In this document: positions 9,471 to 24,469 of the stretch, one piece after another
Layout: each line of letters begins with the position of its first letter
How positions within the stretch are numbered: the stretch's first letter is position 1
Origin: a virus
Taxonomy: Duplodnaviria; Caudoviricetes
Virus record (IMG/VR): IMGVR_UViG_3300038673_000220
Span: 64,001 to 128,000 of that record
Direction: 5' to 3' (one strand)
DNA: 64,000 bases
Made by a program: the position numbers and the translations under genes
The notes under the pieces: generated by a model
What the model saw: the letters and a program-made list of their open reading frames with translations, nothing else
Told to the model about the DNA's origin: nothing
Database searches by the model: none

Positions 9471-9482
9471 GGAGGAAAACTT

Positions 9483-10343
9483 ATGAAACGGTCTTTAATA
9501 CCTGATTTAGAGGCATTGAACCTCGATTCATCTGATGAAAAGGAAGATGTCGTTCGGATGAATGTTCCACTGATGATCCGTATCTTTGAATACATCCGTG
9601 AAGATGTTAAAGAGGATGTTGAGATCCATGACATCGCAGAACGTCTCGTTAAATTCAGTAACGAATCCGACAAAGAGCTAACGATGGATGATTATGAAGC
9701 TATCGTTGGAACTACTACTAAAGAACCAATATCTGTAGCATCTGAAGAAGCGATGCTTGCTTCTGAAGTTCAAAAGGATGACGTATTCGTATGTACTGAT
9801 TCTGGTAAACACTTTATCAACGTTACTGGAAGTAATGAGTCTTTAGATGATTGGAAAGAGATCGTCGAAGAGGAAACTCATGATCTTGAAGAAATCGAGA
9901 TGGTGGTTGATTTCAAAAAGATCGTTGAAGTTGATAGTGATGAAGCACAATTTGCTCTTGAAGCTGCCAATGAGATGGTTATCAAACGAACTGATCTTGA
10001 TAAGTATTTTGTAAATACTTCAGGTAAGAACGAATCATCTTCTGATTGGGAAGAAGGTGTTTTATCAACAGAAGCTATCAATAATAAAACGCATAGTACG
10101 ATCGTTATCAATATGGAGAATATCGATCAAGCGAATGCGTTAACAACAGCTCTGAATAATTTCAGTAATAAAGCTGGGGTTGGGGGTGATGTTGAGATGT
10201 TCATCAGTACAAGTGATGGTGAACCAAAATCTTGTGGTACTATCGGTCATGATGTTAAGATAGGTAAGATCTATCACAACGTTCCTGATGAAAAAGGTGG
10301 TGATAAAAAAGAGGACAAGAAAGATAAGGATAAGAAAGACTAA
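9483..10343 (+). CDS. acidic putative internal head protein with S/A-x-E maturation sites
   Basis: AAGGAGG RBS; ASE, ALE and STE motifs match the phiKZ-type prohead protease consensus; internally duplicated motif. Confidence 0.55.
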   Translation: MKRSLIPDLEALNLDSSDEKEDVVRMNVPLMIRIFEYIREDVKEDVEIHDIAERLVKFSNESDKELTMDDYEAIVGTTTKEPISVASEEAMLASEVQKDDVFVCTDSGKHFINVTGSNESLDDWKEIVEEETHDLEEIEMVVDFKKIVEVDSDEAQFALEAANEMVIKRTDLDKYFVNTSGKNESSSDWEEGVLSTEAINNKTHSTIVINMENIDQANALTTALNNFSNKAGVGGDVEMFISTSDGEPKSCGTIGHDVKIGKIYHNVPDEKGGDKKEDKKDKDKKD

Positions 10344-10414: not shown

Positions 10415-11587
10415 TTATATCAAACTGCAGATGATGTCAAATTTGCTTTTGATGTTTTCAACGACGAACGGTTGACTAGCATTTGACCAAAATCTCGTAT
10501 TAGCTAATCGCTTACTCACAACATCGAAAAGCTTTTTGAGTTCTTGACTCCTATTATTTTCCGGTTGTAAACCATATATTCCGATAAATGTAGCTAGTAT
10601 GAAATACTCTTTAACGAATTCTAACCATCGGTATTGAGCTCCACCATGGAATCCAATATAATGATTATCTATCGTTGTATTGATGAGATCCAATAGGCTA
10701 GTTTCTTTATCAACGTATAACGAAGTGATTACTTCATCTGGTTTCACTTTTCCATGAACGCACTTATCGATAAGATCTTCGATTTCTTGAATAACAGATC
10801 TTCTATCGTTTAAAACAAACGTTGACTTATCAGTTGTTGTGAATTTCTCTTCAGTATATGAAAGATCAGGATCTATCGATTTAAACACTACGATATCGTA
10901 GATAGATTTCAAAATCCAGGTCCTCAAGTTGTCTTCCAATAAAGGTATCAGGCATGTTTTAAAGATGAATGGATAGTTATTTGTATTGTCAACAAATTCT
11001 TCCGGAAAGAGTAAACGATACTTCGTGTAAAGCATCAGTAGCTTGACAACGTTGATACTAAAGATAACCTCATATGGAGGATTCTTTTGATACTTCAATT
11101 TACTCGTAATGATGTCAAGTTCGATATCGCGTGAATCATTTGAAAGCATCGTTAAAGGATGAAGTTTCATCCAATCGTTAAAATTATTACTTCCAAATGG
11201 AGTTGTTTCTACGATATCGATATCTTCAGAAATAATCAGATATTCAGCTGTTTTGTATTTCTGACTATAAATGAAATTCTTATACCTGATAGGGTATTGA
11301 CGTATGAAATCAGAATACGCTGGACTCTCATATTCATTAACGATCTTAGCAAATCTATCAAAGTCATTATGAAATTTCAATAGGTAAGGAATATCAGCTC
11401 GCGTTATAAGAGAATTCAAGAAATCAATACCCATTGATGGGATTGGATCATTTGTAAATCTTAAGGTTCTTTCTTCAAGTCGTCTTAAGCCTATCTCTAA
11501 ATTACTTAAATAATTCTTAAGATCAACTATTTGGATTTTGTAGCTATGAGGTATCCTTGAGATGAAGGTTCTGAGATCTGTAAACAT
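10415..11587 (-). CDS. conserved chimallivirus protein (phiKZ gp52-like by position)
   Basis: 390 aa; GAGG RBS; divergent from chimallin. Confidence 0.55.
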   Translation of the reverse strand: MFTDLRTFISRIPHSYKIQIVDLKNYLSNLEIGLRRLEERTLRFTNDPIPSMGIDFLNSLITRADIPYLLKFHNDFDRFAKIVNEYESPAYSDFIRQYPIRYKNFIYSQKYKTAEYLIISEDIDIVETTPFGSNNFNDWMKLHPLTMLSNDSRDIELDIITSKLKYQKNPPYEVIFSINVVKLLMLYTKYRLLFPEEFVDNTNNYPFIFKTCLIPLLEDNLRTWILKSIYDIVVFKSIDPDLSYTEEKFTTTDKSTFVLNDRRSVIQEIEDLIDKCVHGKVKPDEVITSLYVDKETSLLDLINTTIDNHYIGFHGGAQYRWLEFVKEYFILATFIGIYGLQPENNRSQELKKLFDVVSKRLANTRFWSNASQPFVVENIKSKFDIICSLI

Positions 11588-11664
11588 TTATATCCTCATA
11601 TATTAATTTTTTATTTGGATGAGTAATAGTGTGATCACAATATCGTAAAGGATTCATATTTCAG

Positions 11665-11682
11665 ATATATATCATTTGATTG
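11665..11682 (+). promoter_or_regulatory. early-type phage promoter ATATATATYAT-N6-R
   Basis: ATATATATCAT-TTGATT-G; the motif recurs 8 times upstream of shell/nvRNAP genes and small units. Confidence 0.7.
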
Positions 11683-11792
11683 AATAAACTGATATTTCAC
11701 ATGCTAATCTGGAGAATGCTCATTATGGACGCTGTAGAAATTTATTAGTTGAAAATTGAATGTACTTCAGAATAAATGAATCACAATTTCAA

Positions 11793-11810
11793 ATATATAT
11801 TATTTAAGTG
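11793..11810 (+). promoter_or_regulatory. early-type phage promoter for chimallin
   Basis: ATATATATTAT-TTAAGT-G. Confidence 0.75.
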
Positions 11811-11944
11811 AGGTTGTCATCATATGTAAAAAAATATACTGAGTGATAATAATATGAACTAAAGATGAGACAGTTAGATGTCTCAACCTACGAAGTGTTT
11901 TTGTGGACCTAGGACACCACTAACTTAAAAAGAGGAGCAACAAA

Positions 11945-13444
11945 ATGATCATTAACAATGAAGGACAGCAGGTAAACCAGCCGCAAACTGACGCAGCACC
12001 GAAAGCATTTTCTCTGAGAGATGTATTGCAGCGATGCAATTCTCAGAATGGTTGGTCTGGTGTCGGTCAAGATTACATCAATTCAATCCGTACTCAAATC
12101 GAGGATCCCGCAGCTACTATTAAGGGATCTATGCATCATATCAGCGATACAGCTGTAGCGTTTAATCATGAAGATAACGGTATCGTTCTTGTTCATGAAG
12201 GCGACATGATGAATTACCAGGAGCTTATCAATGAGGTTAAGCTCTACAACGCAAAACAGGCATATTACAGTGCTTTTCCGAAAAAGAAGCTGTTGAACAT
12301 CGTCACTGTTAATCGGTTCATGTTCAACCGACCGATTCAGATGGCCTCTTATATCAATAATCTGTTCTTGTCTCAGAGCGATATGATTAAGAGCTTCAAT
12401 TATCAATCTTTCGGATCTCAGAATAGTATTGATATCAACACTGATATCGGAGTTGTTCGTCGATTCTTCGAGATGCATTCGACGACTCCAGTATTCTGTG
12501 GAAACTTCGGATTCGTAGCATCTCTTGCGGATAAGAATTCCAACCGCAGTGCTGGTTATAATCAACCGACACCGATGTTTGGTGTTTCTGGTTATGTTGA
12601 GTTTATCAGGAATGATTCTGATGGAACATTCACTCCTATCGTTCATGTAACTGATATTCTTTCGGTTCTTCCTACCAATAAAATCTTGGCTCTTGCTTTA
12701 CCGCTCATCGGTGGAGTAATCATTTCTCGCAATATCTGGAAACAGCCATTCTCAGCGATTGCGAAAGATAACAATATCAATATTGGTAATCTCATCATCG
12801 ATGCCAATAGCGGTAAGCCTTATGAAGTGAAATCTGACGCTGATTTCCGTCAGATGTTCCGTCAGTATATCGGAGATCCGCTTCTTTGTATTGATATCAA
12901 ATCTGGCGGAGCTGATATTCCAGGCTTGAATCGTTTGATTCGTCAGTCTGAGCATATTGCTGTATTCAATGAGATCCTCGAGTTCTTCGGTGAGGCTCCT
13001 TTGAACGCTTGTCCGCCGATTGCTCAGAACATCTTCCGAGAAATCATCGGTGCTTCTGATATCGCCAAGAACAATATGGTAGAACCCATTGACAGTCGTG
13101 ATATCAATTACCTCTACACGGTTGCAAAAGCCAAATACAACCCTCGTCTGGATTATCTCTTGGCTCGTAATGAGTATGATCCGGTTCGACGATTCGAGGC
13201 TATCAAAGAGATTTATGGTGACATCACACCTACTCACATCTCTGCAACTACCATGTTCCACAACGACTTCCTTGGTCGTATCGTCAACAGACTGAATGAA
13301 ACGATCAAAATCGATATCCCGAATGTTGGTGATACGATGATGATCAATATGAATGAGTTTGCATCTAAGGCGTATAAACCGAATATGCCTATGTTTGGTC
13401 AAGGACAGAGCTCATTCAATATCGGTGGTTGGTCCTCTTTCTAA
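11945..13444 (+). CDS. chmA: chimallin, major phage nuclear shell protein
   Basis: directly upstream of the nvRNAP beta' N subunit (phiKZ gp54-gp55 order); motifs FTPIVHVTDI, LALAL, W..PF...NIGNL, IDIKSGG and DSRDINYL resemble ChmA; codon bias of a highly expressed gene; tandem early promoters. Confidence 0.8.
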   Translation: MIINNEGQQVNQPQTDAAPKAFSLRDVLQRCNSQNGWSGVGQDYINSIRTQIEDPAATIKGSMHHISDTAVAFNHEDNGIVLVHEGDMMNYQELINEVKLYNAKQAYYSAFPKKKLLNIVTVNRFMFNRPIQMASYINNLFLSQSDMIKSFNYQSFGSQNSIDINTDIGVVRRFFEMHSTTPVFCGNFGFVASLADKNSNRSAGYNQPTPMFGVSGYVEFIRNDSDGTFTPIVHVTDILSVLPTNKILALALPLIGGVIISRNIWKQPFSAIAKDNNINIGNLIIDANSGKPYEVKSDADFRQMFRQYIGDPLLCIDIKSGGADIPGLNRLIRQSEHIAVFNEILEFFGEAPLNACPPIAQNIFREIIGASDIAKNNMVEPIDSRDINYLYTVAKAKYNPRLDYLLARNEYDPVRRFEAIKEIYGDITPTHISATTMFHNDFLGRIVNRLNETIKIDIPNVGDTMMINMNEFASKAYKPNMPMFGQGQSSFNIGGWSSF

Positions 13445-13616: not shown

Positions 13617-13685
13617 AAATCACCTGTTGATCCTGATGCTTCAGGATCAACAGGATAAGATCATTCTTTAAAAGGGAAATAGAAA

Positions 13686-15729
13686 ATGCAGAAATGTTTT
13701 GTATTACCGAGTATCATTAACTTAGATGATCTCTTTAGTCGGACACCAAATACAACGGTGTTTAATGAGATCATGCTTGAATGTCAATCAAGCGAAGTTG
13801 TTGATATACTTTGTGATATTTCCAATGATAAAACTGATTCAGTAGCCTCATGTGAATGCGGTTGCCTTAAAGGAAATTATTACACTGGAACGAAATGTCG
13901 GGTATGTAATACTGTTTGCGAATCGAATCTCTTTGGTGAGATACGGAATGATTCGTGGTTAGCTATACCAAACTCTATCAAAGGAGTTTTGAATCCACAA
14001 GTTTTCAGAATCTTGGAAAGCTGGATGGGAAATACTACAGGTCATCAACCTATCATACGACAAATCCTCGATATGCAATTACCAGTAGAACCTATACCGA
14101 ATACGCCATTTTATTCTGGTATGGGATTTAATTGGTTTTATGATAATTTCAACGCTGTTATAACGTACTTTTTGACAAGCCATCCAACAGATACTGGTAG
14201 AAAAGCTGCTCCGAGTATAGAGCTCTTTCTGAAACAAGCTGGAGAAGCTATCTGGTGTCATTATTTACCAATATTAAGTAAGATCATCCAACCTATTACT
14301 CGTGTGAATAAAGATGTTCGTTATGCTGATACGGACATCAAGAATCTCATGAAGTCGATATTCACTTTAAGGAGCATCCTTTTAGCTGAAAAGACCATGA
14401 AGTTTTCTTATGATCACATCGATCGAAACTTCTTCAATGTGTATATTGAGTTCATCAATTACACGAAAAATATCTTGTATTCGAAGCTGCCAAGAAAACA
14501 GAGCATACTGAGGAAACATGTCTTTGGATCACGATCGCATTGTTCAGGACGAACTGTTGCGATCCCAATCGTTGAACCTCATGAGTCAGATAATATCCAT
14601 CTTCCTTGGCGATTAGGATTGATGATGTATCGTTATCACGTATTGGCAGTTTTGGTCAAGAAGTTTAGAATACCACCACTTAAAGCGTTTAATCGTGTTG
14701 TCAATGCTATCAACGTGTACGATTATGAGATCGATCGTATTATGCAGGAGTTGATCGCTGATTGTCCGTATAAAGGATTCCCTCTACTTGTGAATCGAAA
14801 TCCGTCATTGAAAATAGCGAGTATCCAATTATTATTCGCAACGAAGATCAAACCTGCATTAACTGAGAATCCGGTCAATTTACCAAATATTGAAGATATT
14901 AATGTCTCAGTGTTTGATCAGGATGATGAAGGATTCAGTAAGAGCTCATCGATCTTGGACATCAATGATGAAGATCAAATCGATCCAAAACTGAAGTATC
15001 TATTACGAAGCTATGTTGAAGATGATACAATAGCTGTTTCACCACTGATCGTTAAAGGTCCCAATCTTGACTTAACACATAAGGTCCGCTATGAAGTAAT
15101 TCATAGATGAAAATCTCTCTAATTGCTGGAACCTACTAAAGCTGTCTCACTACAACGTGACTCGAAAGGGTGAGCGTGAATGTTTGAAAACGAGACGGAT
15201 ATATGGGGAACCGTGGATTCTAAGAATCCCTTTAGCAGCCAAGATCCTAAAGTTATTGGGTATTGATTAATTGAATGAAGATACTCAGGTGGATTAGTTA
15301 ACCAATAAATAAGGATAAGGTCCAACGACTATGTGATTAATGGGTAATTCAATAACAATGTATCTATGGGTTATTGAGTCTACATACGCGCCATTAAGTA
15401 TACAGTACTTACCAAGTGGGTAGGGAAATGGGAGACTGCCTCAGGAGATGAGGTAGAAGAGATAGTCTGGACATCTAGGGAAAACCTAGAGCTGCAGGTA
15501 ATGCTGCGGGGATCAACTAACGACTGATCCTGAACATAACGTTGATGGGGACGAGATCAATATCATTCCGTTGTATGAGATGGATGAAGTCAAAGAGTTT
15601 GAGCGTCTTTATCCAGCTCACCGTTTCATTTCTGATAACGATCTCAAAATCGATGGTGGAGATGTTGTCATTTCTTCTCAACAGATTTGTATGCTGGCCT
15701 CATGGATGAATGATCCTGAATACAGCTAA
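13686..15729 (+). CDS. non-virion RNAP beta' N-terminal subunit (phiKZ gp55-like), spliced: join(13686..15072,15542..15729)
   Basis: Zn motif CECG...CRVC; LRKHVFGSR and NRNPSL; splicing restores the catalytic NLDFDGDE (GAC T|TT GAT GGG GAC); exon 2 is open to the TAA at 15727-15729. Confidence 0.92.
15073..15541 (+). mobile_element. group I intron (IA-like, no homing endonuclease), 469 nt
   Basis: 5' exon ends in U and can pair with IGS GGUC (U.G wobble); P element AATTGCTGGAA, R element GTCCAACGACTA, S element AAGAGATAGTCT; P3 TCTCTC/GGGAGA; terminal G; removal restores DFDGD. Confidence 0.93.
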
Positions 15730-15731
15730 AT

Positions 15732-15774
15732 ATCAAGTGGTAGGCATAACAACCTACCACTTGATTTATTTTTT
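15732..15774 (+). terminator. intrinsic terminator
   Basis: 13-bp stem atcaagtggtagg/cctaccacttgat plus T-run, right after the exon 2 stop. Confidence 0.9.
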
Positions 15775-15776
15775 AA

Positions 15777-15795
15777 ATATATATTATACTAGGAG
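15777..15795 (+). promoter_or_regulatory. early-type promoter
   Basis: ATATATATTAT-ACTAGG-A. Confidence 0.65.
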
Positions 15796-16337
15796 TTGTA
15801 GAAAAATAAAACACCTAGTTATTATATAAAGAAAAGAGCTTTCCATAATGAATCGTAGCGTTATCAATTGGGTACATTGCAAAACGGCGGGGCATTCTGG
15901 GAAGCTTGGATTTAATAGTTACGACACACGATTGATTTACTCTATTAAATCACGTTATCACCTACTCATTAAACGATTATTTGCCGAAATCGCATCGACC
16001 AATGAATGTCGATGTTCATAGTCCATTGCCAATTAAATTCCACTATTGGCGCATAAATCGACTGATTTCTTATTGTTGATCAGATTGTGTGGTAATGATT
16101 GAGCATCTTAGAAAGTCGTAATAACAGATGACTCTTTGAACGAATTTGTACTGGACAAGTGCTCTGACAAATTCAAATCGTTATGACACCGTATGTTGAA
16201 ACTTCGGAGACGGTATGAACCTTCGGGAAATATCAACATTTCATATCGATAACCCGGTTTGAAATCCAGATAGAGTCGGGATTTATTATCAATCAATTCT
16301 ACTGATCCTGAATAATCGGGATCAGTGGTAAATTTTT
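15795..16337 (+). ncRNA. candidate structured non-coding RNA of unknown family
   Basis: bounded by promoter and terminator; no RBS-supported ORF; about ten consecutive stems and two cUUCGg motifs. Confidence 0.55.
16301..16337 (+). terminator. intrinsic terminator
   Basis: actgatcctga/tcgggatcagt stem followed by aattttt. Confidence 0.75.
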
Positions 16338-16353
16338 ATCGAGGGTAAATTTC

Positions 16354-16865
16354 GTGTTTAAGATAATAATAAGTAAGAATACTGGATTAACATGTGTTGA
16401 GATAAATCAACCATCACAGGAGGTGTATGATAAAATCATAAAGATATGTCATTCATACGATGTATCTGACGAGAAAATAAGTATAATAAATCGTGGTGTC
16501 GCGAGTTTTTTCAAAGTAAAAAAGAAGGAGGGTATGATTGGATACTTATAGCGTTTTGGAGTGAGGATGTAGCAAAAGCTTTCTTAGATGTTGTATCAAG
16601 CGAGATAAGCGATTTAAGTATTGATGAAGATAATTCTAAGCTTTATTCATTGTCATATAATCAAGTTATGACTATATCGAAGGAATTGTCAAAGATATTC
16701 GGAATAGATGAATCGAGGATGGATTATGAACTTCTCAGATCCATAACTTGCGTAAATAAAGATAATGATTCATCTATCAAAATGATCCAAGAATCCAAAA
16801 ATTCCAAAACTTTCAATAAATGCTTATTCTGTAATAATAAATGTAATAAGAGTAAGTGTCCTTAA
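16354..16865 (+). CDS. hypothetical protein split by a -1 frameshift (about 170 aa if joined)
   Basis: the frame-0 ORF 16354-16551 overlaps a -1 frame that is open from 16470 to 16865; slippery T_TTT_TTC and A_AAA_AAG lie in the overlap. Confidence 0.55.
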
Positions 16866-16883
16866 AATCTAGGGTATAAAATT

Positions 16884-17663
16884 ATGCTACAATTCATTTG
16901 TAAAAAAGACGACGAGGTAGGACTTTATATTCAAGTTAATCACACGAATCATCTTGATAAGTTATTCGTAAGAAAATTCGCTTTGGATGGATTCTCAAAC
17001 ATCCTATCCGAAGAAGAGAATGCAAAATCAGTTGAACAAGTGAATAGCGTATTCTCTTTAATGAGCGAAGCTGAACAGGATTATATATTCAAGCTGTATG
17101 ATGAAATCAATATCACTCTTCTTCAAAATTATCGGCAGGATGAGATCAAAGATACATTGAATTCTATAGGGAATCGTATATTAAAAGATATCGAACGAAT
17201 GAAATTGGTCGATTACTGTAATCAACACCCTTTTAATAAATTCCCTATCCAAATCAACAGTATTAAGATAAACTTCGTTTCATTGATTCTTATCATAGGA
17301 ATATTTCTACCGGTTTTAATCATGGTGAAATCTTTCAATAAACGATATGTTAAGAATCAGACAATGAATTCGTTGGCAGTCAATCGTGTTCTGAAACCAA
17401 CCATTGATACATATTTCAGTAAAGAAAGGATGTTTATCAAAAACCTTATCATCGATGCGATCAAAAATGATTATCCTGAAGCTAAGGATATTATTATCAT
17501 CGATAAGAAATTCAAAAACATTTGCACTTTTAGTGAAATCATTCTGTGTAATATCATTTCAGATATATTCACTAAAGCACCTTGTAACAATGAAGTAGTA
17601 TTTGAAAGCATCAACCAATTCTTCATAGCTTATATTCGGAATTATATCCGAGAAAATAAGTAA
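16884..17663 (+). CDS. hypothetical protein
   Basis: 259-aa ORF. Confidence 0.7.
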   Translation: MLQFICKKDDEVGLYIQVNHTNHLDKLFVRKFALDGFSNILSEEENAKSVEQVNSVFSLMSEAEQDYIFKLYDEINITLLQNYRQDEIKDTLNSIGNRILKDIERMKLVDYCNQHPFNKFPIQINSIKINFVSLILIIGIFLPVLIMVKSFNKRYVKNQTMNSLAVNRVLKPTIDTYFSKERMFIKNLIIDAIKNDYPEAKDIIIIDKKFKNICTFSEIILCNIISDIFTKAPCNNEVVFESINQFFIAYIRNYIRENK

Positions 17664-17719
17664 ATACATAACCGAACAATGATTTAGATATTAATATCAA
17701 AAATCAAAGGAGATCTTTC

Positions 17720-18331
17720 ATGATGGGTTCAGTTATGCCAGCTATAACTCTAAATGCTTGTCCAGGTTTGTCAAGTTTTATAGGAACAGCTGGTACAGAC
17801 GCATTGTTAGCTGATATAAATCGAGATCTGAATAACAGTCAGTTCTTTGGATCTGTAGATGATATCATGTCTGTTGGGAGGCAGATGTTTATTGATAATA
17901 ACATTGTACCGATAAGGGCTATTGAAAATAGCGTTAAGAATCTTGTTGGTATGTTTGAGTATAACGATGTTTATCGAGAGATAACGTCTGAAGAAGATCT
18001 TCAAAGCATTCCTTCTTGTATGCATGATAGCATACTTCGATACAAACCTATCAAGAAGCTTTTTGATGAAGCTCGTATCTTTGGATTCGGATGGGACTAT
18101 GTTCCTGAAGAAGATTGTTATGGTCGGTTAATCAAAAATGGTTTTGTTGAAGATGTTGAAGCTATTATGGATGATAAAGGTGAATTCGAGTTGGAATACA
18201 CTTTCCAATCAGATGATCCAGATTTATCATTCGAAGAACTTGAATGCATCAAGGTGACTAGAGATTATCTTGATTACATCCTCAACGAGACAGACATCGA
18301 TCCAACCGATTACGGAAATAGAAGGTCATAA
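17720..18331 (+). CDS. conserved chimallivirus hypothetical protein (phiKZ gp61-like by synteny)
   Basis: GGAG RBS; acidic; C-terminal DPT motif. Confidence 0.6.
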   Translation: MMGSVMPAITLNACPGLSSFIGTAGTDALLADINRDLNNSQFFGSVDDIMSVGRQMFIDNNIVPIRAIENSVKNLVGMFEYNDVYREITSEEDLQSIPSCMHDSILRYKPIKKLFDEARIFGFGWDYVPEEDCYGRLIKNGFVEDVEAIMDDKGEFELEYTFQSDDPDLSFEELECIKVTRDYLDYILNETDIDPTDYGNRRS

Positions 18332-18339
18332 AAGATACT

Positions 18340-18381
18340 CCATGAGCTGTTATTATTAACAGCTCATGGGACAATATTTTT
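18340..18381 (+). terminator. intrinsic terminator
   Basis: ccatgagctgtta/taacagctcatgg stem, with a T-run 7 nt downstream. Confidence 0.75.
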
Positions 18382-18394
18382 TCGGGAGCAAGAA

Positions 18395-18796
18395 ATGAGT
18401 ACTCCAGTAATACCTACGTTAATGAGTGATATCTCCATGTTAAAACATCCTGTTGATATCATCAAATACGTATTACGTTGGTATATGTATGTTCCTAAGA
18501 ACATCAACGATTCATTAAATGAACAAGAGATATCGTTTCGATATACAGATGCTAAAGTCGGTCATGATCGAGGTATGTTGGCAAATGCTTCGAAAGGTGA
18601 TATCGAAAAAGTTCTAAAAAGGTATTTCCCAAATGGTACTATCGATGTAGCAGTTGCTACATCCGATTATGATACAGTAAGATATGACATAACGTTCGAT
18701 ATCGTTATTGTTAACGAAGGTAAATCTTATTCAATCAGTAGAAGTTTTCGTGTTGATTCTGATGGTTATCTTGTTTATAACTTTGATGGAGAATGA
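18395..18796 (+). CDS. small conserved protein, possibly T4 gp25-like baseplate wedge fold
   Basis: 133 aa; helix followed by RYFP..V.V...Y.I.F.I.I beta pattern. Confidence 0.45.
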   Translation: MSTPVIPTLMSDISMLKHPVDIIKYVLRWYMYVPKNINDSLNEQEISFRYTDAKVGHDRGMLANASKGDIEKVLKRYFPNGTIDVAVATSDYDTVRYDITFDIVIVNEGKSYSISRSFRVDSDGYLVYNFDGE

Positions 18797-20697
18797 TCAT
18801 GGACGATGTCCAGATAACTATAAAAAAGCTCATCGATGAACTTACTGAACATAAGCGTCGGTATTACGACCTTAATGAACCAATCATCTCAGATATTGAA
18901 TACGACGCATTGCATCAGCTCTTTGTCGATTATCAAAAGAAGTATCCAGAAATAGTTGAAGAGATAGGTTGGAAACCTTTTGGTAAAGTTGTTACTCACA
19001 AACACAAGATGCTTTCATTAGAGAGCACTCAAGATCTTTTAGTTGTATTAGGAACATTCATTCACCACAAATGGTTGATTTCATGTGAACCAAAGATCGA
19101 TGGATTGTCATTGGAATTGGTTTATAATGATAAGAACTTAGTATCAGCATCTACTCGTGGTGATGGGAATGAAGGTGAAGATGTTACAGCCAACATTCGA
19201 TTCGTTGAGAGTATTCCGAAGACGATTTCAAACGATGCTTGTATATATGGTGAAATTTATTTGAATAGAGCGGATTTCACTAATATAAACAAAGATCGAA
19301 TGGCTCGAGGAAAATCTCTTTATACGAATTTAAGGAATGCAGCTGCTGGTATTCTGAGATCTTCTGATACAACGAGATACCTCCATTTACTCCAGTTCTT
19401 TCCATACACTGTCAAAGATCATAATCTTGATAGTCAATCTTCAAGCTTTACATGGTTAAAGCTTAATGGTTTCAACACGTTGGATGATTATACTCTCTTA
19501 GCTAAGTATATTTCAGATATCGAAGATTATCATGACCATATGACTGAAATAAGAGAAAAGCTTCCATTTGAGATCGATGGTTTGGTTTTCAAAATAGATG
19601 ATTTCGATCTTCAAGAGAAGATAGGAATGGCATTTACCCATCCAAAATGGGCTATCGCTTTTAAGTTCAAACCAGACCGAGTTTATACTCGGTTGAACGA
19701 TGTTGTATTCCAAGTAGGTAAATCTGGTATCATTGCGCCAGTTGGATTACTTAATCCTGTTCGCATACGTGGAAGCTTAGTTGGAAGAGCTTCTTTGTCA
19801 AATGAATCAACGATAAAGAAAAAAGATATCAGGATAGGTGATATCGTAGCTCTTGAAATGGCTAACGATGTTATCCCTTATATTGCTGAACCATCTATGG
19901 ATGATCGAACTGGTAAAGAAGAAGTGATCGTCTTTCCAAAAGAATGTCCAGAATGCCATCATCCTGTAAGTAAGAATGGTGTTCATTACGTTTGTACGAA
20001 TTATCAATGTCCAGCTCAGGTTATTGGTAAATTGATCAACGCTGTTAAACGAGAAGGGTTCAATATCAAAGGTCTTGGTTATGAAACCATGAACAAGCTA
20101 ATAACGCATGGTTTAATCAAGAACATTGAAGATATTTTCAAATTGGATGATCCTGAGAAGATCTCCATAATGTCCCAATTAAACATTGGTGACAAAGTGA
20201 TTAAAAATCTAATTAACGAGATAAAACGTAAGGTGTGTATACCTATACGTAAGTTCATTTTCGCATTAGGAATACCCAACGTGAGTGTTGCGACATCAGC
20301 TAAATTGGCTGAGTATTTTCATGATGTTAAGCATCTTGTGAAAATGCAACCTTACAATTCAAAAGCCGTTTTATCTAATATCAACTCTGAGACGATTGAA
20401 GCGATCGAAGCTTTTCTGAGAAATTCAGAAAATATAGATATGATCAATCGTATGGTGTATTATATTCGAATAGAACCAGATGATACACCAACATATTCAA
20501 TGAATGTTGCTATTACTGGAAAATTCAACAGACCTAGAAATGAAATAAAGGATCAGTTGAATTCAAAGAATATCAATGTTACGAGTAAGGTGAACAAATC
20601 AACAAGCTATCTTTTATGTGGTGAAAATCCAAGTGAATCTAAGATAACTACTGCAAAAAACCTCAACATTCCGATCGTTGGAATCGACTTCTTTTAG
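18793..20697 (+). CDS. ligA: NAD-dependent DNA ligase
   Basis: YY...P.ISD.EYD, MLSL, adenylation motif EPKIDG, TRGDG..GEDVT, RNAAAG, EIDGLVFK, WAIAFKF, Zn finger CPEC..C....CP, C-terminal BRCT. Confidence 0.97.
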   Translation: MIMDDVQITIKKLIDELTEHKRRYYDLNEPIISDIEYDALHQLFVDYQKKYPEIVEEIGWKPFGKVVTHKHKMLSLESTQDLLVVLGTFIHHKWLISCEPKIDGLSLELVYNDKNLVSASTRGDGNEGEDVTANIRFVESIPKTISNDACIYGEIYLNRADFTNINKDRMARGKSLYTNLRNAAAGILRSSDTTRYLHLLQFFPYTVKDHNLDSQSSSFTWLKLNGFNTLDDYTLLAKYISDIEDYHDHMTEIREKLPFEIDGLVFKIDDFDLQEKIGMAFTHPKWAIAFKFKPDRVYTRLNDVVFQVGKSGIIAPVGLLNPVRIRGSLVGRASLSNESTIKKKDIRIGDIVALEMANDVIPYIAEPSMDDRTGKEEVIVFPKECPECHHPVSKNGVHYVCTNYQCPAQVIGKLINAVKREGFNIKGLGYETMNKLITHGLIKNIEDIFKLDDPEKISIMSQLNIGDKVIKNLINEIKRKVCIPIRKFIFALGIPNVSVATSAKLAEYFHDVKHLVKMQPYNSKAVLSNINSETIEAIEAFLRNSENIDMINRMVYYIRIEPDDTPTYSMNVAITGKFNRPRNEIKDQLNSKNINVTSKVNKSTSYLLCGENPSESKITTAKNLNIPIVGIDFF

Positions 20698-20708
20698 AGG
20701 GAAAGAAA

Positions 20709-20933
20709 ATGTTGAATGATTATGGAAAAAAACTCTTAAAGTTGGGTACTCCAAAAGATTCATTAGAACATGTTGACCCTACTTTAAAGATAACAGAAGG
20801 TATCCCAAATCAATATGACAAAGATACTGGTGGAAACGCTGGGGACTCATTTGAGTTCCCACTATCCGATAAAGAACAGGATCAAATCAATCGTTTACTT
20901 GACCCTATATTCCAATTGAAGGTGGGATCATGA
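20709..20933 (+). CDS. hypothetical protein
   Basis: GAGGG RBS; ATGA overlap with the next ORF. Confidence 0.6.
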   Translation: MLNDYGKKLLKLGTPKDSLEHVDPTLKITEGIPNQYDKDTGGNAGDSFEFPLSDKEQDQINRLLDPIFQLKVGS

Positions 20934-21187
20934 AACACGACCTCATACCTGACATTGTAAATACTGAACGTATCCGGATTGATGAAATCGAACGCGAAGA
21001 ACTTGTATTTGGTGAAGATGATATTATTCGAATAGATGATAGTAAACGAGAAGAACTTACATTCGATAAAAGCGATATCATCGATCTTCACAATTTACAA
21101 AAAAGAAAACGAACCTATAAAAAAGATCCAAATAAGAAGAATAAGAAAAAGATAACTCAATCTTCCAGGAAAAAGAATAGGAGATGA
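20930..21187 (+). CDS. small protein with a duplicated acidic motif and a very basic C-terminal tail
   Basis: IRIDxxxREELxF occurs twice; K/R-rich tail. Confidence 0.65.
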   Translation: MKHDLIPDIVNTERIRIDEIEREELVFGEDDIIRIDDSKREELTFDKSDIIDLHNLQKRKRTYKKDPNKKNKKKITQSSRKKNRR

Positions 21188-21188
21188 A

Positions 21189-21752
21189 ATGGACGCCTTT
21201 AACGAAAAAGAGATGCGTGATATCGATCAATTGCATTCTGAGTTGATGAAAATCGAAGATACTCAGAATAATGTCGATATATCCGAATTCAATTACTATT
21301 CACCGTTATTCAGAAAAGCTGATAACCTTTCTAAAGAAAAGATCAGAGAGCTTTCTGACCAATTCTTTCGAAGATTCAACGTCTATAAACCCATTGTTGT
21401 TTTTCAAGAAGGTGAAGAGATTTTTCGAGTACCCCAACTCTTTATTGAAATCAACGATGTTTCTAAAGAACATACGAATCTCGTTGACAACTTCAGAACG
21501 CATGGAGTATCTGATGTCCCGAAGTATGCTCAGGAAGCAACCTATGGTTTATTAGCAGCTATCCTAAAATCCCAAGAAGATGTGAGTGAAAAAGGCTTCA
21601 AATCGTATGGTGAATACATCAATCATCTTTCAAATGAGTATCGTAGAGATGTTGAGGCTTTCACTCAGGTGAAGGATAACGTACCTGTAGAAAAACAAAG
21701 ATCTCACAAAGATATTGATATTAATGACATTGACGGACTTGTCTGGAAATGA
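21189..21752 (+). CDS. conserved hypothetical protein (phiKZ gp64-like by synteny)
   Basis: AGGAG RBS; FRVPQL motif; directly upstream of the SbcD-like gene. Confidence 0.6.
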   Translation: MDAFNEKEMRDIDQLHSELMKIEDTQNNVDISEFNYYSPLFRKADNLSKEKIRELSDQFFRRFNVYKPIVVFQEGEEIFRVPQLFIEINDVSKEHTNLVDNFRTHGVSDVPKYAQEATYGLLAAILKSQEDVSEKGFKSYGEYINHLSNEYRRDVEAFTQVKDNVPVEKQRSHKDIDINDIDGLVWK

Positions 21753-22855
21753 AATTCATATGTGCATCCGATCTCCACTTTGGGCACCGAAAGGTGCCCA
21801 GTATCGATACGGCAAATAATCTCAGATCATTCCTTTTTCCTCAACTTAATGACACAGTCGATGTTCTATTTTTAAATGGTGACATCTTTGATGCAATGGT
21901 TTCTATCAACAGTATCGATTCAATTATTATCCTTGAACTCTTTACTGATCTTTTATTCCTCTGCGATAAACACAATATCAAGATAAGAATCCTTAGAGGA
22001 ACTTATTCTCATGATCATAAACAGCTTGAGTTTATATCGAAACTCAAATTGAAGCTCAATCTTTCAGTTGATTACAAAATGTATGACACACTTAGCGTTG
22101 AATACATCAAAGAATTCGATAAGAATATCTTGTATTTACCAGATAATCTTCCATTTGGTACTAAGTATGATATGTTCGATCATATCAGTAAGCTTTTTCA
22201 AGTTATCAATATTGATAAAGTTGATTTCATCATGATGCATGGTGAGCTGACGCATATGATTTTCGGACATGTGAGCAAGAACTCATTTGATGTGAGTGAG
22301 TTGAATAGATTCTGTAAAGGTTGGATATTTTCAGGACATATTCACAAACCGCTTAAGTATAAGAATTCTATTTCGATAGGAAGTTTTAATCGGTTAGCTC
22401 ATAATGAAGAAGAATCTAAAGGATTTTGGTTATTTGATCAAAAACCTATATTCATAAAGAACGAAGAAGCTACGATCTTCAAGACGATCAACCTTTCACA
22501 TATAGATGATATCCAGAAGATCATATTAAAATATCAAGAAGAAGTTGATATCCTTGATAAAGATAAAAAATCTTTTATTCGAGTATTGATAAAAGATTCA
22601 CACCTGAAACAAACTCTTAACAAATTCAGCTTGGAATATTATCCTCATGTGGTTTTAACTTTCAAGAATAACATTACAAAAACCACTGAAGAGGATGACT
22701 TTCTTAATAAGAAGTTATTTCATGATAAACACGAATACTTGGAAGCTCCTTCCTTAGAGAATATAGCGTCCATTGTTTTTAACGATCTCCAATCTAAAGG
22801 TCTATTTATTGATATCGAAGAAATTAAACAAATTATCAATGTAGACATATTCTGA
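21749..22855 (+). CDS. SbcD/Mre11-like metallophosphoesterase nuclease
   Basis: SDLHFG, GDIFD, GTYSHD, MMHG, SGHIH and GSFNRL motifs. Confidence 0.92.
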   Translation: MKFICASDLHFGHRKVPSIDTANNLRSFLFPQLNDTVDVLFLNGDIFDAMVSINSIDSIIILELFTDLLFLCDKHNIKIRILRGTYSHDHKQLEFISKLKLKLNLSVDYKMYDTLSVEYIKEFDKNILYLPDNLPFGTKYDMFDHISKLFQVINIDKVDFIMMHGELTHMIFGHVSKNSFDVSELNRFCKGWIFSGHIHKPLKYKNSISIGSFNRLAHNEEESKGFWLFDQKPIFIKNEEATIFKTINLSHIDDIQKIILKYQEEVDILDKDKKSFIRVLIKDSHLKQTLNKFSLEYYPHVVLTFKNNITKTTEEDDFLNKKLFHDKHEYLEAPSLENIASIVFNDLQSKGLFIDIEEIKQIINVDIF

Positions 22856-22863
22856 GGTTTATT

Positions 22864-23700
22864 ATGATTGTCGAAAAAAGAACATATCACCCACTCGTTA
22901 GTGATCTTGAAGAAAAAGTAAGTTATGGTACTTTAGGTATATTGGAAACGTTAGTGCATCATTTTAACGATCAACCTCATCTTAATCGAAAGATCCTTCT
23001 CGTTAATGGTGATACAATTATACGTAATTGTTATCATAAAGATTTACCAGTTAATACGATATACGATAAGATCTCTTTCGATTTTGAAAAGCTCATTTAC
23101 TATTACAGACAATATGTAAATGAAGGAATCGTTATCATCTATTTTCATCCAGGTATATATGGGTTTATACCACAACATCTGCAAAAGAAATTAACACCGT
23201 TACGTGAGAATTTAACAACATTATCCAATGGTGTAATAAGTCTCAACAGTGTTGAATTCAACAAGGTTAGAACCCTCAGTGATGAAAGTGTCAAAGTAGT
23301 AGCTTTGGCTGTAAAAGGTAAGTTTAGTTATAAAAGCTTACTGGAACAGTTTCGATCGTTATTCTTATCGAATAAGATATGGATGATCAGTCATTGTCCG
23401 ATCGATTATTTCTTATTCCAATCATTTGATATTGAACTTATCAATAGCCATACAGGTATCATAATCACTAAAAAAGATCTCGGTAAAAAAGTATTTGGTG
23501 AATCAAATGTACCTTTCAACAAAACATCATTGATGCTCTTTGGTGATAAAGAGTTTATACGACCTTTATGTCGTAATAAACCAAAGGCTTTATTAGAACT
23601 TAAGAGTAATAATATTCATCTTCGTACTGAGAGAGAATTGGCTCAACTTGCTGTGACGAAACTCAAGATAGATAGGAAATCTCTTTTGTGGGATTTCTGA
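22864..23700 (+). CDS. conserved core protein, possibly flap/PIN nuclease-like (phiKZ gp66-like)
   Basis: VNGDTIIRN, SHCPID, SHTG and FGD motifs; synteny. Confidence 0.55.
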   Translation: MIVEKRTYHPLVSDLEEKVSYGTLGILETLVHHFNDQPHLNRKILLVNGDTIIRNCYHKDLPVNTIYDKISFDFEKLIYYYRQYVNEGIVIIYFHPGIYGFIPQHLQKKLTPLRENLTTLSNGVISLNSVEFNKVRTLSDESVKVVALAVKGKFSYKSLLEQFRSLFLSNKIWMISHCPIDYFLFQSFDIELINSHTGIIITKKDLGKKVFGESNVPFNKTSLMLFGDKEFIRPLCRNKPKALLELKSNNIHLRTERELAQLAVTKLKIDRKSLLWDF

Positions 23701-23766
23701 TATTTTTTTACAAGAAAGTCCTATCATATAGGATAAAAATCAACTCTTAAGGAGATTAAAAAGGCT

Positions 23767-24348
23767 ATGGACGATAACGGCAATATTAATAAAGCGATTC
23801 GGTTTTCAACGGATGATTTCAAATACACCGCTGATTTGAGTCTGTATGGAGGTCGAGCAAGTTTTTCTATTTTTGATAATGGGTCAAAAAGTGCTCCAGT
23901 AATTAAAATGCTCTTCAATCAGACATCTGGTGCGCAGATCGTTTTCATCATGAATAAAGTATTGAATGAAAAAGATCTCAGATCACCTATCGAGCAATCC
24001 CATTATCCATACAACCGTGATACTAAAGAAAGCTCATTCAAGAGTTCTTTAGCTATCGGTAGAGATAATGAAGGAGTCATTTTCTTCGATTTCACAAGCG
24101 ATACGCACAAAGATCCTATTCGGTTTTATCCGATAACTGATAAGAGTGTCCGTATCAACGGTATGGAGCTTCCAAAAGTTACATTAACTGAGATGAGCGT
24201 TCGAGCAATCATCAATGTTTTTAACGTGTTACTTAAAGCCAGCTTGTATACAAAAGATCTTCCATTTTCACCGAACGATGGGGGTGGTTCCACTGGAGGT
24301 GGTTTCGTAGATCCGAAATCGTCTGTTGGTGACGACGTCCCGTTTTAA
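23767..24348 (+). CDS. ChmC-like nucleic-acid-binding protein (phiKZ gp67 position)
   Basis: immediately upstream of the gp68-like gene; beta-rich ~170-aa core, Gly linker, C-terminal DDVPF. Confidence 0.55.
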   Translation: MDDNGNINKAIRFSTDDFKYTADLSLYGGRASFSIFDNGSKSAPVIKMLFNQTSGAQIVFIMNKVLNEKDLRSPIEQSHYPYNRDTKESSFKSSLAIGRDNEGVIFFDFTSDTHKDPIRFYPITDKSVRINGMELPKVTLTEMSVRAIINVFNVLLKASLYTKDLPFSPNDGGGSTGGGFVDPKSSVGDDVPF

Positions 24349-24451: not shown

Positions 24452-24469
24452 ATATATATCATAATAAAG
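24452..24469 (+). promoter_or_regulatory. early-type promoter
   Basis: ATATATATCAT-AATAAA-G. Confidence 0.7.

Follow-up and report, generated by a model that had tools for sequence, protein, structure and literature searches.

Why does a phage genome that is about 93% covered by open reading frames (ORFs) carry some 550 nt without a frame between its gp55-like RNA polymerase subunit and the operon behind it? The locus lies in a 64,000-nt stretch of DNA (hereafter the window), part of a 149-kb uncultured phage record; the phage has also been assembled as a 183-kb JGI contig. The largest stretch without a long ORF, 15111-16883, comprises a group I intron, exon 2 of the gp55-like gene, the candidate RNA and a frameshifted gene. 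An earlier note on this DNA had placed the element in the chimallin-RNA polymerase region, and this context was confirmed: the product of 11945-13444 has a chimallin-like fold (top 8 Foldseek hits, with a low-confidence model), and the next gene, 13686-15729, encodes the gp55-like subunit. The 5′ leader of the chimallin gene (11880-11944) contains short hairpins and is near-identical to that of L001, unlike the adjoining intergenic DNA. The gp55-like gene is split at 15073-15541 by the intron (RF00028, E 1.4e-10, Rfam scan), whose junction agrees with the intronless relative L002. This intron is ORF-less and is inserted at the DFDGD catalytic motif of the subunit; the copy in L073 has a LAGLIDADG ORF, those of L009 and L120 an HNH-like ORF, and L123 and L242 are, like L002, intronless.

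In our best reading, to which we give a probability of roughly one half, the element is an early structured RNA specific to this lineage that acts in trans as a fold for protein binding. That it is a real structured non-coding element, either a trans RNA or a cis leader, is highly probable. The data show the lack of a conserved coding frame, selection on the sequence and on its nested stems, and a promoter motif. The locus contains the following features, with the sequence changes observed in its homologue, L073:

15732-15773, plus strand: intrinsic-terminator-like hairpin with U-tract, closing the gp55 transcript; stem kept in L073.
15775-15787, plus strand: early-type phage promoter motif, (AA)ATATATATTAT; a recurrent motif with parallels in phiR1-37 and 201phi2-1.
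15790-16337, plus strand: candidate structured non-coding RNA of ~550 nt, recognized by its stems and by conservation in L073.
15836-15907, plus strand: P1, 10-bp stem with a near-invariant 52-nt interior; one A-U pair becomes G-U, and the interior is almost unchanged.
15909-15951, plus strand: P2, 10-bp stem with a near-invariant 23-nt loop; stem invariant.
15953-16097, plus strand: P3, multibranch domain with hairpins at 15992-16015, 16027-16051 and 16062-16083.
16104-16130, plus strand: P4, short stem with 4/5 pairs kept; the loop word GUCGUAA is present in both phages.
16142-16174, plus strand: P5, invariant 8-bp stem; loop with CUGGA and GUGCUC.
16177-16250, plus strand: P6, domain with a 9-bp closing stem and an inner stem, 16194-16197/16209-16212, capped by a UNCG loop.
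16253-16280, plus strand: P7, 8-bp stem with the invariant loop GAAAUCCAGAUA; C16254-G16279 becomes U-A, and a G-U pair becomes G-C.
16299-16337, plus strand: 3′ hairpin of 13 bp (stem 16299-16328) with an offset U-run; stem invariant.
16354-16865, plus strand: downstream orphan gene, the first of the operon behind the RNA; 169 aa in L073.

With the downstream 259-aa protein as query, two close relatives were retrieved, and one contig, L073, spans the slot. It holds the sole homologue found, in the same position and aligning end to end at 86% identity. Identity falls from 96.5% over 15790-15960 (6 changes in the 171 nt of the 5′ domain) to 75% in the middle and rises again to 86% over the 3′ part; third codon positions of the flanking genes are 59-70% identical. 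The adjacent group I ribozyme served as a benchmark: its 3′ core carries 2 substitutions in 135 aligned bases, and the unpaired 5′ bases of the RNA are conserved about as much as this working ribozyme core. Recent DNA exchange between both phages could have inflated the identity of the 5′ domain. The invariant unpaired bases in P1, P2, P4, P5 and P7, as far as sequence can indicate, point to tertiary contacts or a binding surface. As had been described, the element is non-coding: no ORF within it has a ribosome-binding site (RBS), none longer than ~30 codons is common to both phages, and the 57-codon ORF at 15848 displays no codon-position pattern and no third-position excess relative to L073.

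All ten stems named in the earlier note were found where it had placed them, and as they had been drawn without L073, their 73 pairs provided a prospective test. Between the window and L073, changes affect 10 of 146 paired sites and 55 of 299 unpaired sites (Fisher P 0.0009). Only 3 of the 73 pairs are broken in L073, where random placement of the same substitutions would break 13.6 (P about 5e-5; expectation range 12-14), a deficit that also yields P 5e-5 with the invariant 5′ domain omitted. Double compensatory changes occur at two pairs of these stems, 15997-16010 and 16254-16279, against 0.8-0.9 expected, which is not significant alone (P ~0.2). The compensation sought in a homologue amounts to four pairs when 16179-16248 and 16196-16210 are included, both identified post hoc after correction of the P6 register. 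Base pairs preserved through sequence change, the hallmark of a structured non-coding RNA, are thus present in the comparison of two sequences.

The most variable part of the RNA is the loops of P3; among the pairs of this domain, G15997-C16010 becomes A-U and U-G in the closing stem becomes U-A. The post hoc changes in P6 turn C16179-G16248 into U-A and U16196-A16210 into C-G. Two registers drawn earlier for the UUCG region, atgttga/tcaacat and accgt/acggt, did not survive, both being broken in L073; a third, 16194-16197/16209-16212, is kept with compensation. A UUCG to UCCG change retains the UNCG loop, and the second UUCG hairpin is not conserved. Loop-loop pairings are possible in both phages for 15863-15870/15929-15936, between the P2 and P4 loops, between the P5 and P7 loops, and for 16014-16020/16214-16220; over these two sequences, the number of such complementarities (pseudoknots, kissing loops) is not above that in shuffles of the unpaired bases. 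Among these hypothetical tertiary contacts, the P7 loop is a candidate kissing partner of the P5 loop.

The case for the element rests on conservation and not on folding energy. The near-continuous pairing reported earlier holds in that the stems are present, but it does not rise above background: the core scores z -1.63 in the window (-2.96 in L073) against a mean of -2.7 for 460-nt, mostly coding windows of the same phage and -4.3 for a ligase window. Although the whole unit with its flanking hairpins reaches -3.35, the z-score was dropped as evidence because coding windows score as low. Coding mRNA of the whole genome (G000) and of L002 and L120 folds better than dinucleotide shuffles and synonymous-codon shuffles (150-nt windows, z about -0.9 to -1.6), an excess somewhat above that of control loci.

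The early promoter motif assigned to position 15777, ATATATATTAT (consensus ATATATATYAT), is recurrent: the window has 8 copies where 0.76 would be expected. Of 17 copies across the genome, 13 have a start codon with an RBS-like word no more than ~90 nt downstream, and the leaders behind the motif elsewhere are mostly 35-90 nt long. A similar sequence is annotated as a promoter in phiR1-37, and in 201phi2-1 about 10 bp separate the early motif from the transcription start downstream of it (PMC11512511); the candidate RNA would start at ~15790-15797. At the other end, the hairpin noted near 16301 is present as a 13-bp stem (16299-16328) followed by UAAAUUUUU, and judged by its sequence it could serve as a leaky terminator, as a processing site or as a hairpin for protein binding. 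The core of its stem, ATCCTGA...TC(A/G)GGAT, is common to a hairpin in the gp55 leader; in five lineages this hairpin is found 45-60 nt ahead of the gp55 start, and in four of the five a promoter precedes it. This leader hairpin (window 13623-13654, L001:5946, L002:5930, L072:5946, L120:9918) combines the core ATCCTGA...TCAGGAT with a variable loop, and is a possible autoregulatory or processing site; a 12-nt piece recurs at the 3′ end of the intron (~15523).

The view of the element as a self-contained unit holds only in part: it is flanked by an early-type promoter and a 3′ hairpin, but the promoter is shared with the operon, the U-run of the hairpin is offset and its stem core occurs in the gp55 leader, so that a discrete, self-contained transcript is not clearly established. 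The operon, 16354-24348, comprises the orphan gene, a ligase, an SbcD-like gene and others. In L002, L009, L120 and L123 the same promoter follows gp55 and, with no such element in between, directly precedes the homologous operon, and L242 has no gap at all beside gp55. These arrangements indicate that the operon promoter was already in place when the RNA and the orphan 169-aa gene were inserted downstream of it. A role in read-through or as a leader is possible because the promoter is shared with the operon, the next early motif after the copy at 15777 lies only at 24452, and the hairpin core is also found in the gp55 leader.

The strongest rival, which we regard as a reasonable though lesser possibility, is that the element is a cis-acting structured 5′ leader of this operon, tuning hairpin read-through or the stability or translation of the mRNA. 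Its main support is the shared promoter together with the hairpin core recurring in the gp55 5′ leader of five lineages. The distance from the 3′ hairpin to the first start codon, 25 nt, would also suit a leader, and 5′-UTR-derived small RNAs are common in 201phi2-1 (PMC11512511). An alternative pairing of 16061-16069 with 16318-16326 is kept in both phages; with 9 bp it falls short of the 13-bp hairpin in strength and could have arisen by chance. The count that leaves the operon without another promoter before 24452 is one of the early motif. Relatives run the same operon without the element, its most conserved part lies 350-500 nt away from the hairpin, and no riboswitch family matches it, all of which argue against a leader.

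The orphan gene at the head of the operon is intact in L073, whereas the copy in the window has lost one base from a run of T near 16506, which breaks its frame. The break could be a recent pseudogene, an assembly error or a case for slippage rescue. The lost base directly precedes an A AAA AAG slippery word; a programmed -1 frameshift at this word was set aside because L073 reads through without one. Neither Pfam nor PADLOC gave a match for the 169-aa protein, at the end of which lies a cysteine-rich motif.

Known RNA families were compared with the element. The Rfam scan that had been proposed, run at two window sizes, detected the nearby group I intron but returned nothing in 15770-16350. 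Models of RNase P RNA, group I and II introns, small self-cleaving ribozymes and riboswitches gave no match in this interval, and those of ROOL, GOLLD and OLE none at E up to 10. A stretch resembling domain V (16186-16215) was rejected: it has no AGC/CGC triad, and L073 has not retained it. ARAGORN identified no tRNA or tmRNA in the window, and a tRNA-like domain was also negative in Rfam. At the element there are no tandem repeats of the type III antitoxin kind, direct repeats or iterons, and no antisense match in the phage genome exceeds 13 nt or chance. A literature search returned nothing on large structured RNAs in nucleus-forming phages.

The candidate RNA resembles ROOL (RF03087) and GOLLD (RF02032) in that these are phage-encoded, frame-less, multi-stem RNAs of 500+ nt with no assigned function (10.1101/2024.12.08.627333), and its invariant loops could form kissing contacts. 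Whereas ROOL and GOLLD often lie near tRNA islands, the candidate has no such island and heads an operon behind an early promoter of the phage RNA polymerase. ROOL and GOLLD have multiple covarying pseudoknots or kissing loops and form RNA-only homo-oligomeric cages; the candidate, known from two phages only, has possible contacts of this kind, in a number not above that in shuffles. Given its size and lack of a frame it is similar to both, but their models do not match it and we do not place it among them. The small RNAs of phiKZ and 201phi2-1 (sRNA005/sRNAgp182; PMC11512511, PMC8244752) and misc_4 of phiR1-37 (PMC4848604) are likewise non-coding units of phiKZ-related jumbo phages, several of them derived from 5′ UTRs by early termination, but they are under 250-300 nt and lie at other loci. 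Type III toxin-antitoxin systems (ToxIN, CptIN, TenpIN) share the order of promoter, RNA, terminator hairpin and ~170-aa ORF; they differ in that the candidate lacks tandem repeats and the 169-aa protein matches none of ToxN, CptN and TenpN in Pfam or PADLOC.

The RNA has no further copy in its own phage genome. Among GenBank phages, blastn returned promoter matches only, with no DNA similarity to cultured phages beyond them. Collecting syntenic regions downstream of gp55, as had been suggested, yielded L073 as one homologue and none among 50 IMG/VR gp55-bearing relatives (<=45% gp55 identity), which were searched with two covariance models and by DNA; one 34-nt match in these records (E 0.005) looks like chance. 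Pattern searches of IMG/VR, checked by nhmmer and a hairpin filter, gave none or chance matches, and exact patterns in GTDB gave none; a single pattern match in a JGI metagenome is due to chance, lying inside a DNA polymerase gene. All these searches have little power for diverged copies, and in the nearest relatives they cover loci rather than whole genomes. Descent of the RNA by decay of two small ORFs that occupy its slot in L002 was rejected for want of tblastn similarity. The shell- or RNA polymerase-associated role put forward in the note is speculative. A core role in the phage is unlikely, because in relatives such as L242 and L123 gp55 is flanked by no such gap, and the 50 relatives gave no match.

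This patchy distribution, together with the co-occurrence of RNA and orphan gene in the window and L073 and a region rich in introns and homing endonucleases, would fit a selfish or vestigial insert, an RNA-based mobile element or what is left of one, which came in with the orphan gene and persists for its folding alone. We find this unlikely, as group I, group II and small-ribozyme models do not match, the element is single-copy and free of direct repeats, and its unpaired 5′ bases are conserved about like the ribozyme core. Very unlikely is a site acting at the DNA level (a replication origin, shell tether or protein-loading site) whose inverted repeats mimic RNA stems: a near-invariant 170-bp block does adjoin the AT-rich promoter in the core region, but the G-U wobble changes are strand-specific, the UUCG to UCCG change preserves a UNCG loop, the plus strand folds better than the minus strand and iterons are absent. 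A small-protein gene, of 57 codons or of the first 14 only, is scarcely credible: these 14 codons are identical in both phages, but with 0 synonymous changes where ~5 are expected, the frame is stopped in L073 by TGA at codon 15 and disrupted further on by an indel, it has no RBS, its ATG falls inside P1 and its product has no match in a 15-billion protein collection.

For the RNA acting in trans, we infer transcription, a 3′ end, tertiary contacts, the trans action itself and a partner. The virion RNA polymerase would produce an RNA of ~500-550 nt early in infection, from a promoter that ancestrally served the downstream operon. Most transcripts would stop or be trimmed at the 3′ hairpin, giving a stable RNA, and read-through past the hairpin would supply the operon. 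The near-invariant P1-P2 domain and the invariant P4, P5 and P7 loops would form tertiary or intermolecular contacts and a protein-binding surface. As has been proposed for ROOL, GOLLD and OLE, the folded particle could then act on a protein of the host or the phage, either as its decoy or as its scaffold.

On the basis of two sequences, the RNA is a candidate for a new family of large structured phage RNAs. The published transcript maps of phiKZ and 201phi2-1 contain only small RNAs of <250 nt (PMC11512511, PMC8244752). If the reading is true, a 550-nt early RNA with ribozyme-grade conservation adds an RNA component to early nucleus-forming infection. It would also offer a new fold for structural work and could be transcribed in vitro without the phage, its value being limited by an occurrence in two uncultured phages only.

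Other lineages carry non-coding gaps nearby. In a quick gp55 tree the nearest lineages are L072 and L120, followed by L242, L008 and L002. L072, L120 and L002 have strongly folding gaps of 510-770 nt between chimallin and gp55 (z -5 to -8), where the window has only 240 nt. L002:5228-5870, L120:9302-9860 and L072:5492-5930 are mutually dissimilar, strongly folding non-coding stretches of 450-650 nt directly behind chimallin, with no Rfam match; that of L002 contains a pair of loop-loop modules in tandem, which show reciprocal changes, and two words resembling an anti-Shine-Dalgarno sequence. The P7 loop is also present in the L002 gap, where the same 12-nt loop, AAATCCAGATAG, belongs to a 9-bp hairpin and is preceded by CUGGA, a word complementary to it. 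Sharing of this 12-mer has P ~0.001 in shuffles, a post hoc value, and the covariance models reach only E 0.3-2.5 on the L002 element; we treat the shared loop as a sequence lead and claim no homology. It is a long shot that the RNA and these gaps belong to a single undescribed class of early RNAs, diverging fast among nucleus-forming phages and having a kissing P5-P7 loop-loop module in common, whose members would assemble into particles acting at the vesicle-to-nucleus stage by protecting the genome or by binding RNA polymerase, shell or defence proteins. Outside the window, G000:C1:19698-20353 is a second ORF-free gap, of 656 nt, with three 12-15-bp hairpins; this gap is unrelated to the candidate RNA. 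In L012, a relative at 45% identity, two ORF-free gaps follow gp55 (9481-9964 and 11219-11962), each with the same promoter-like word.
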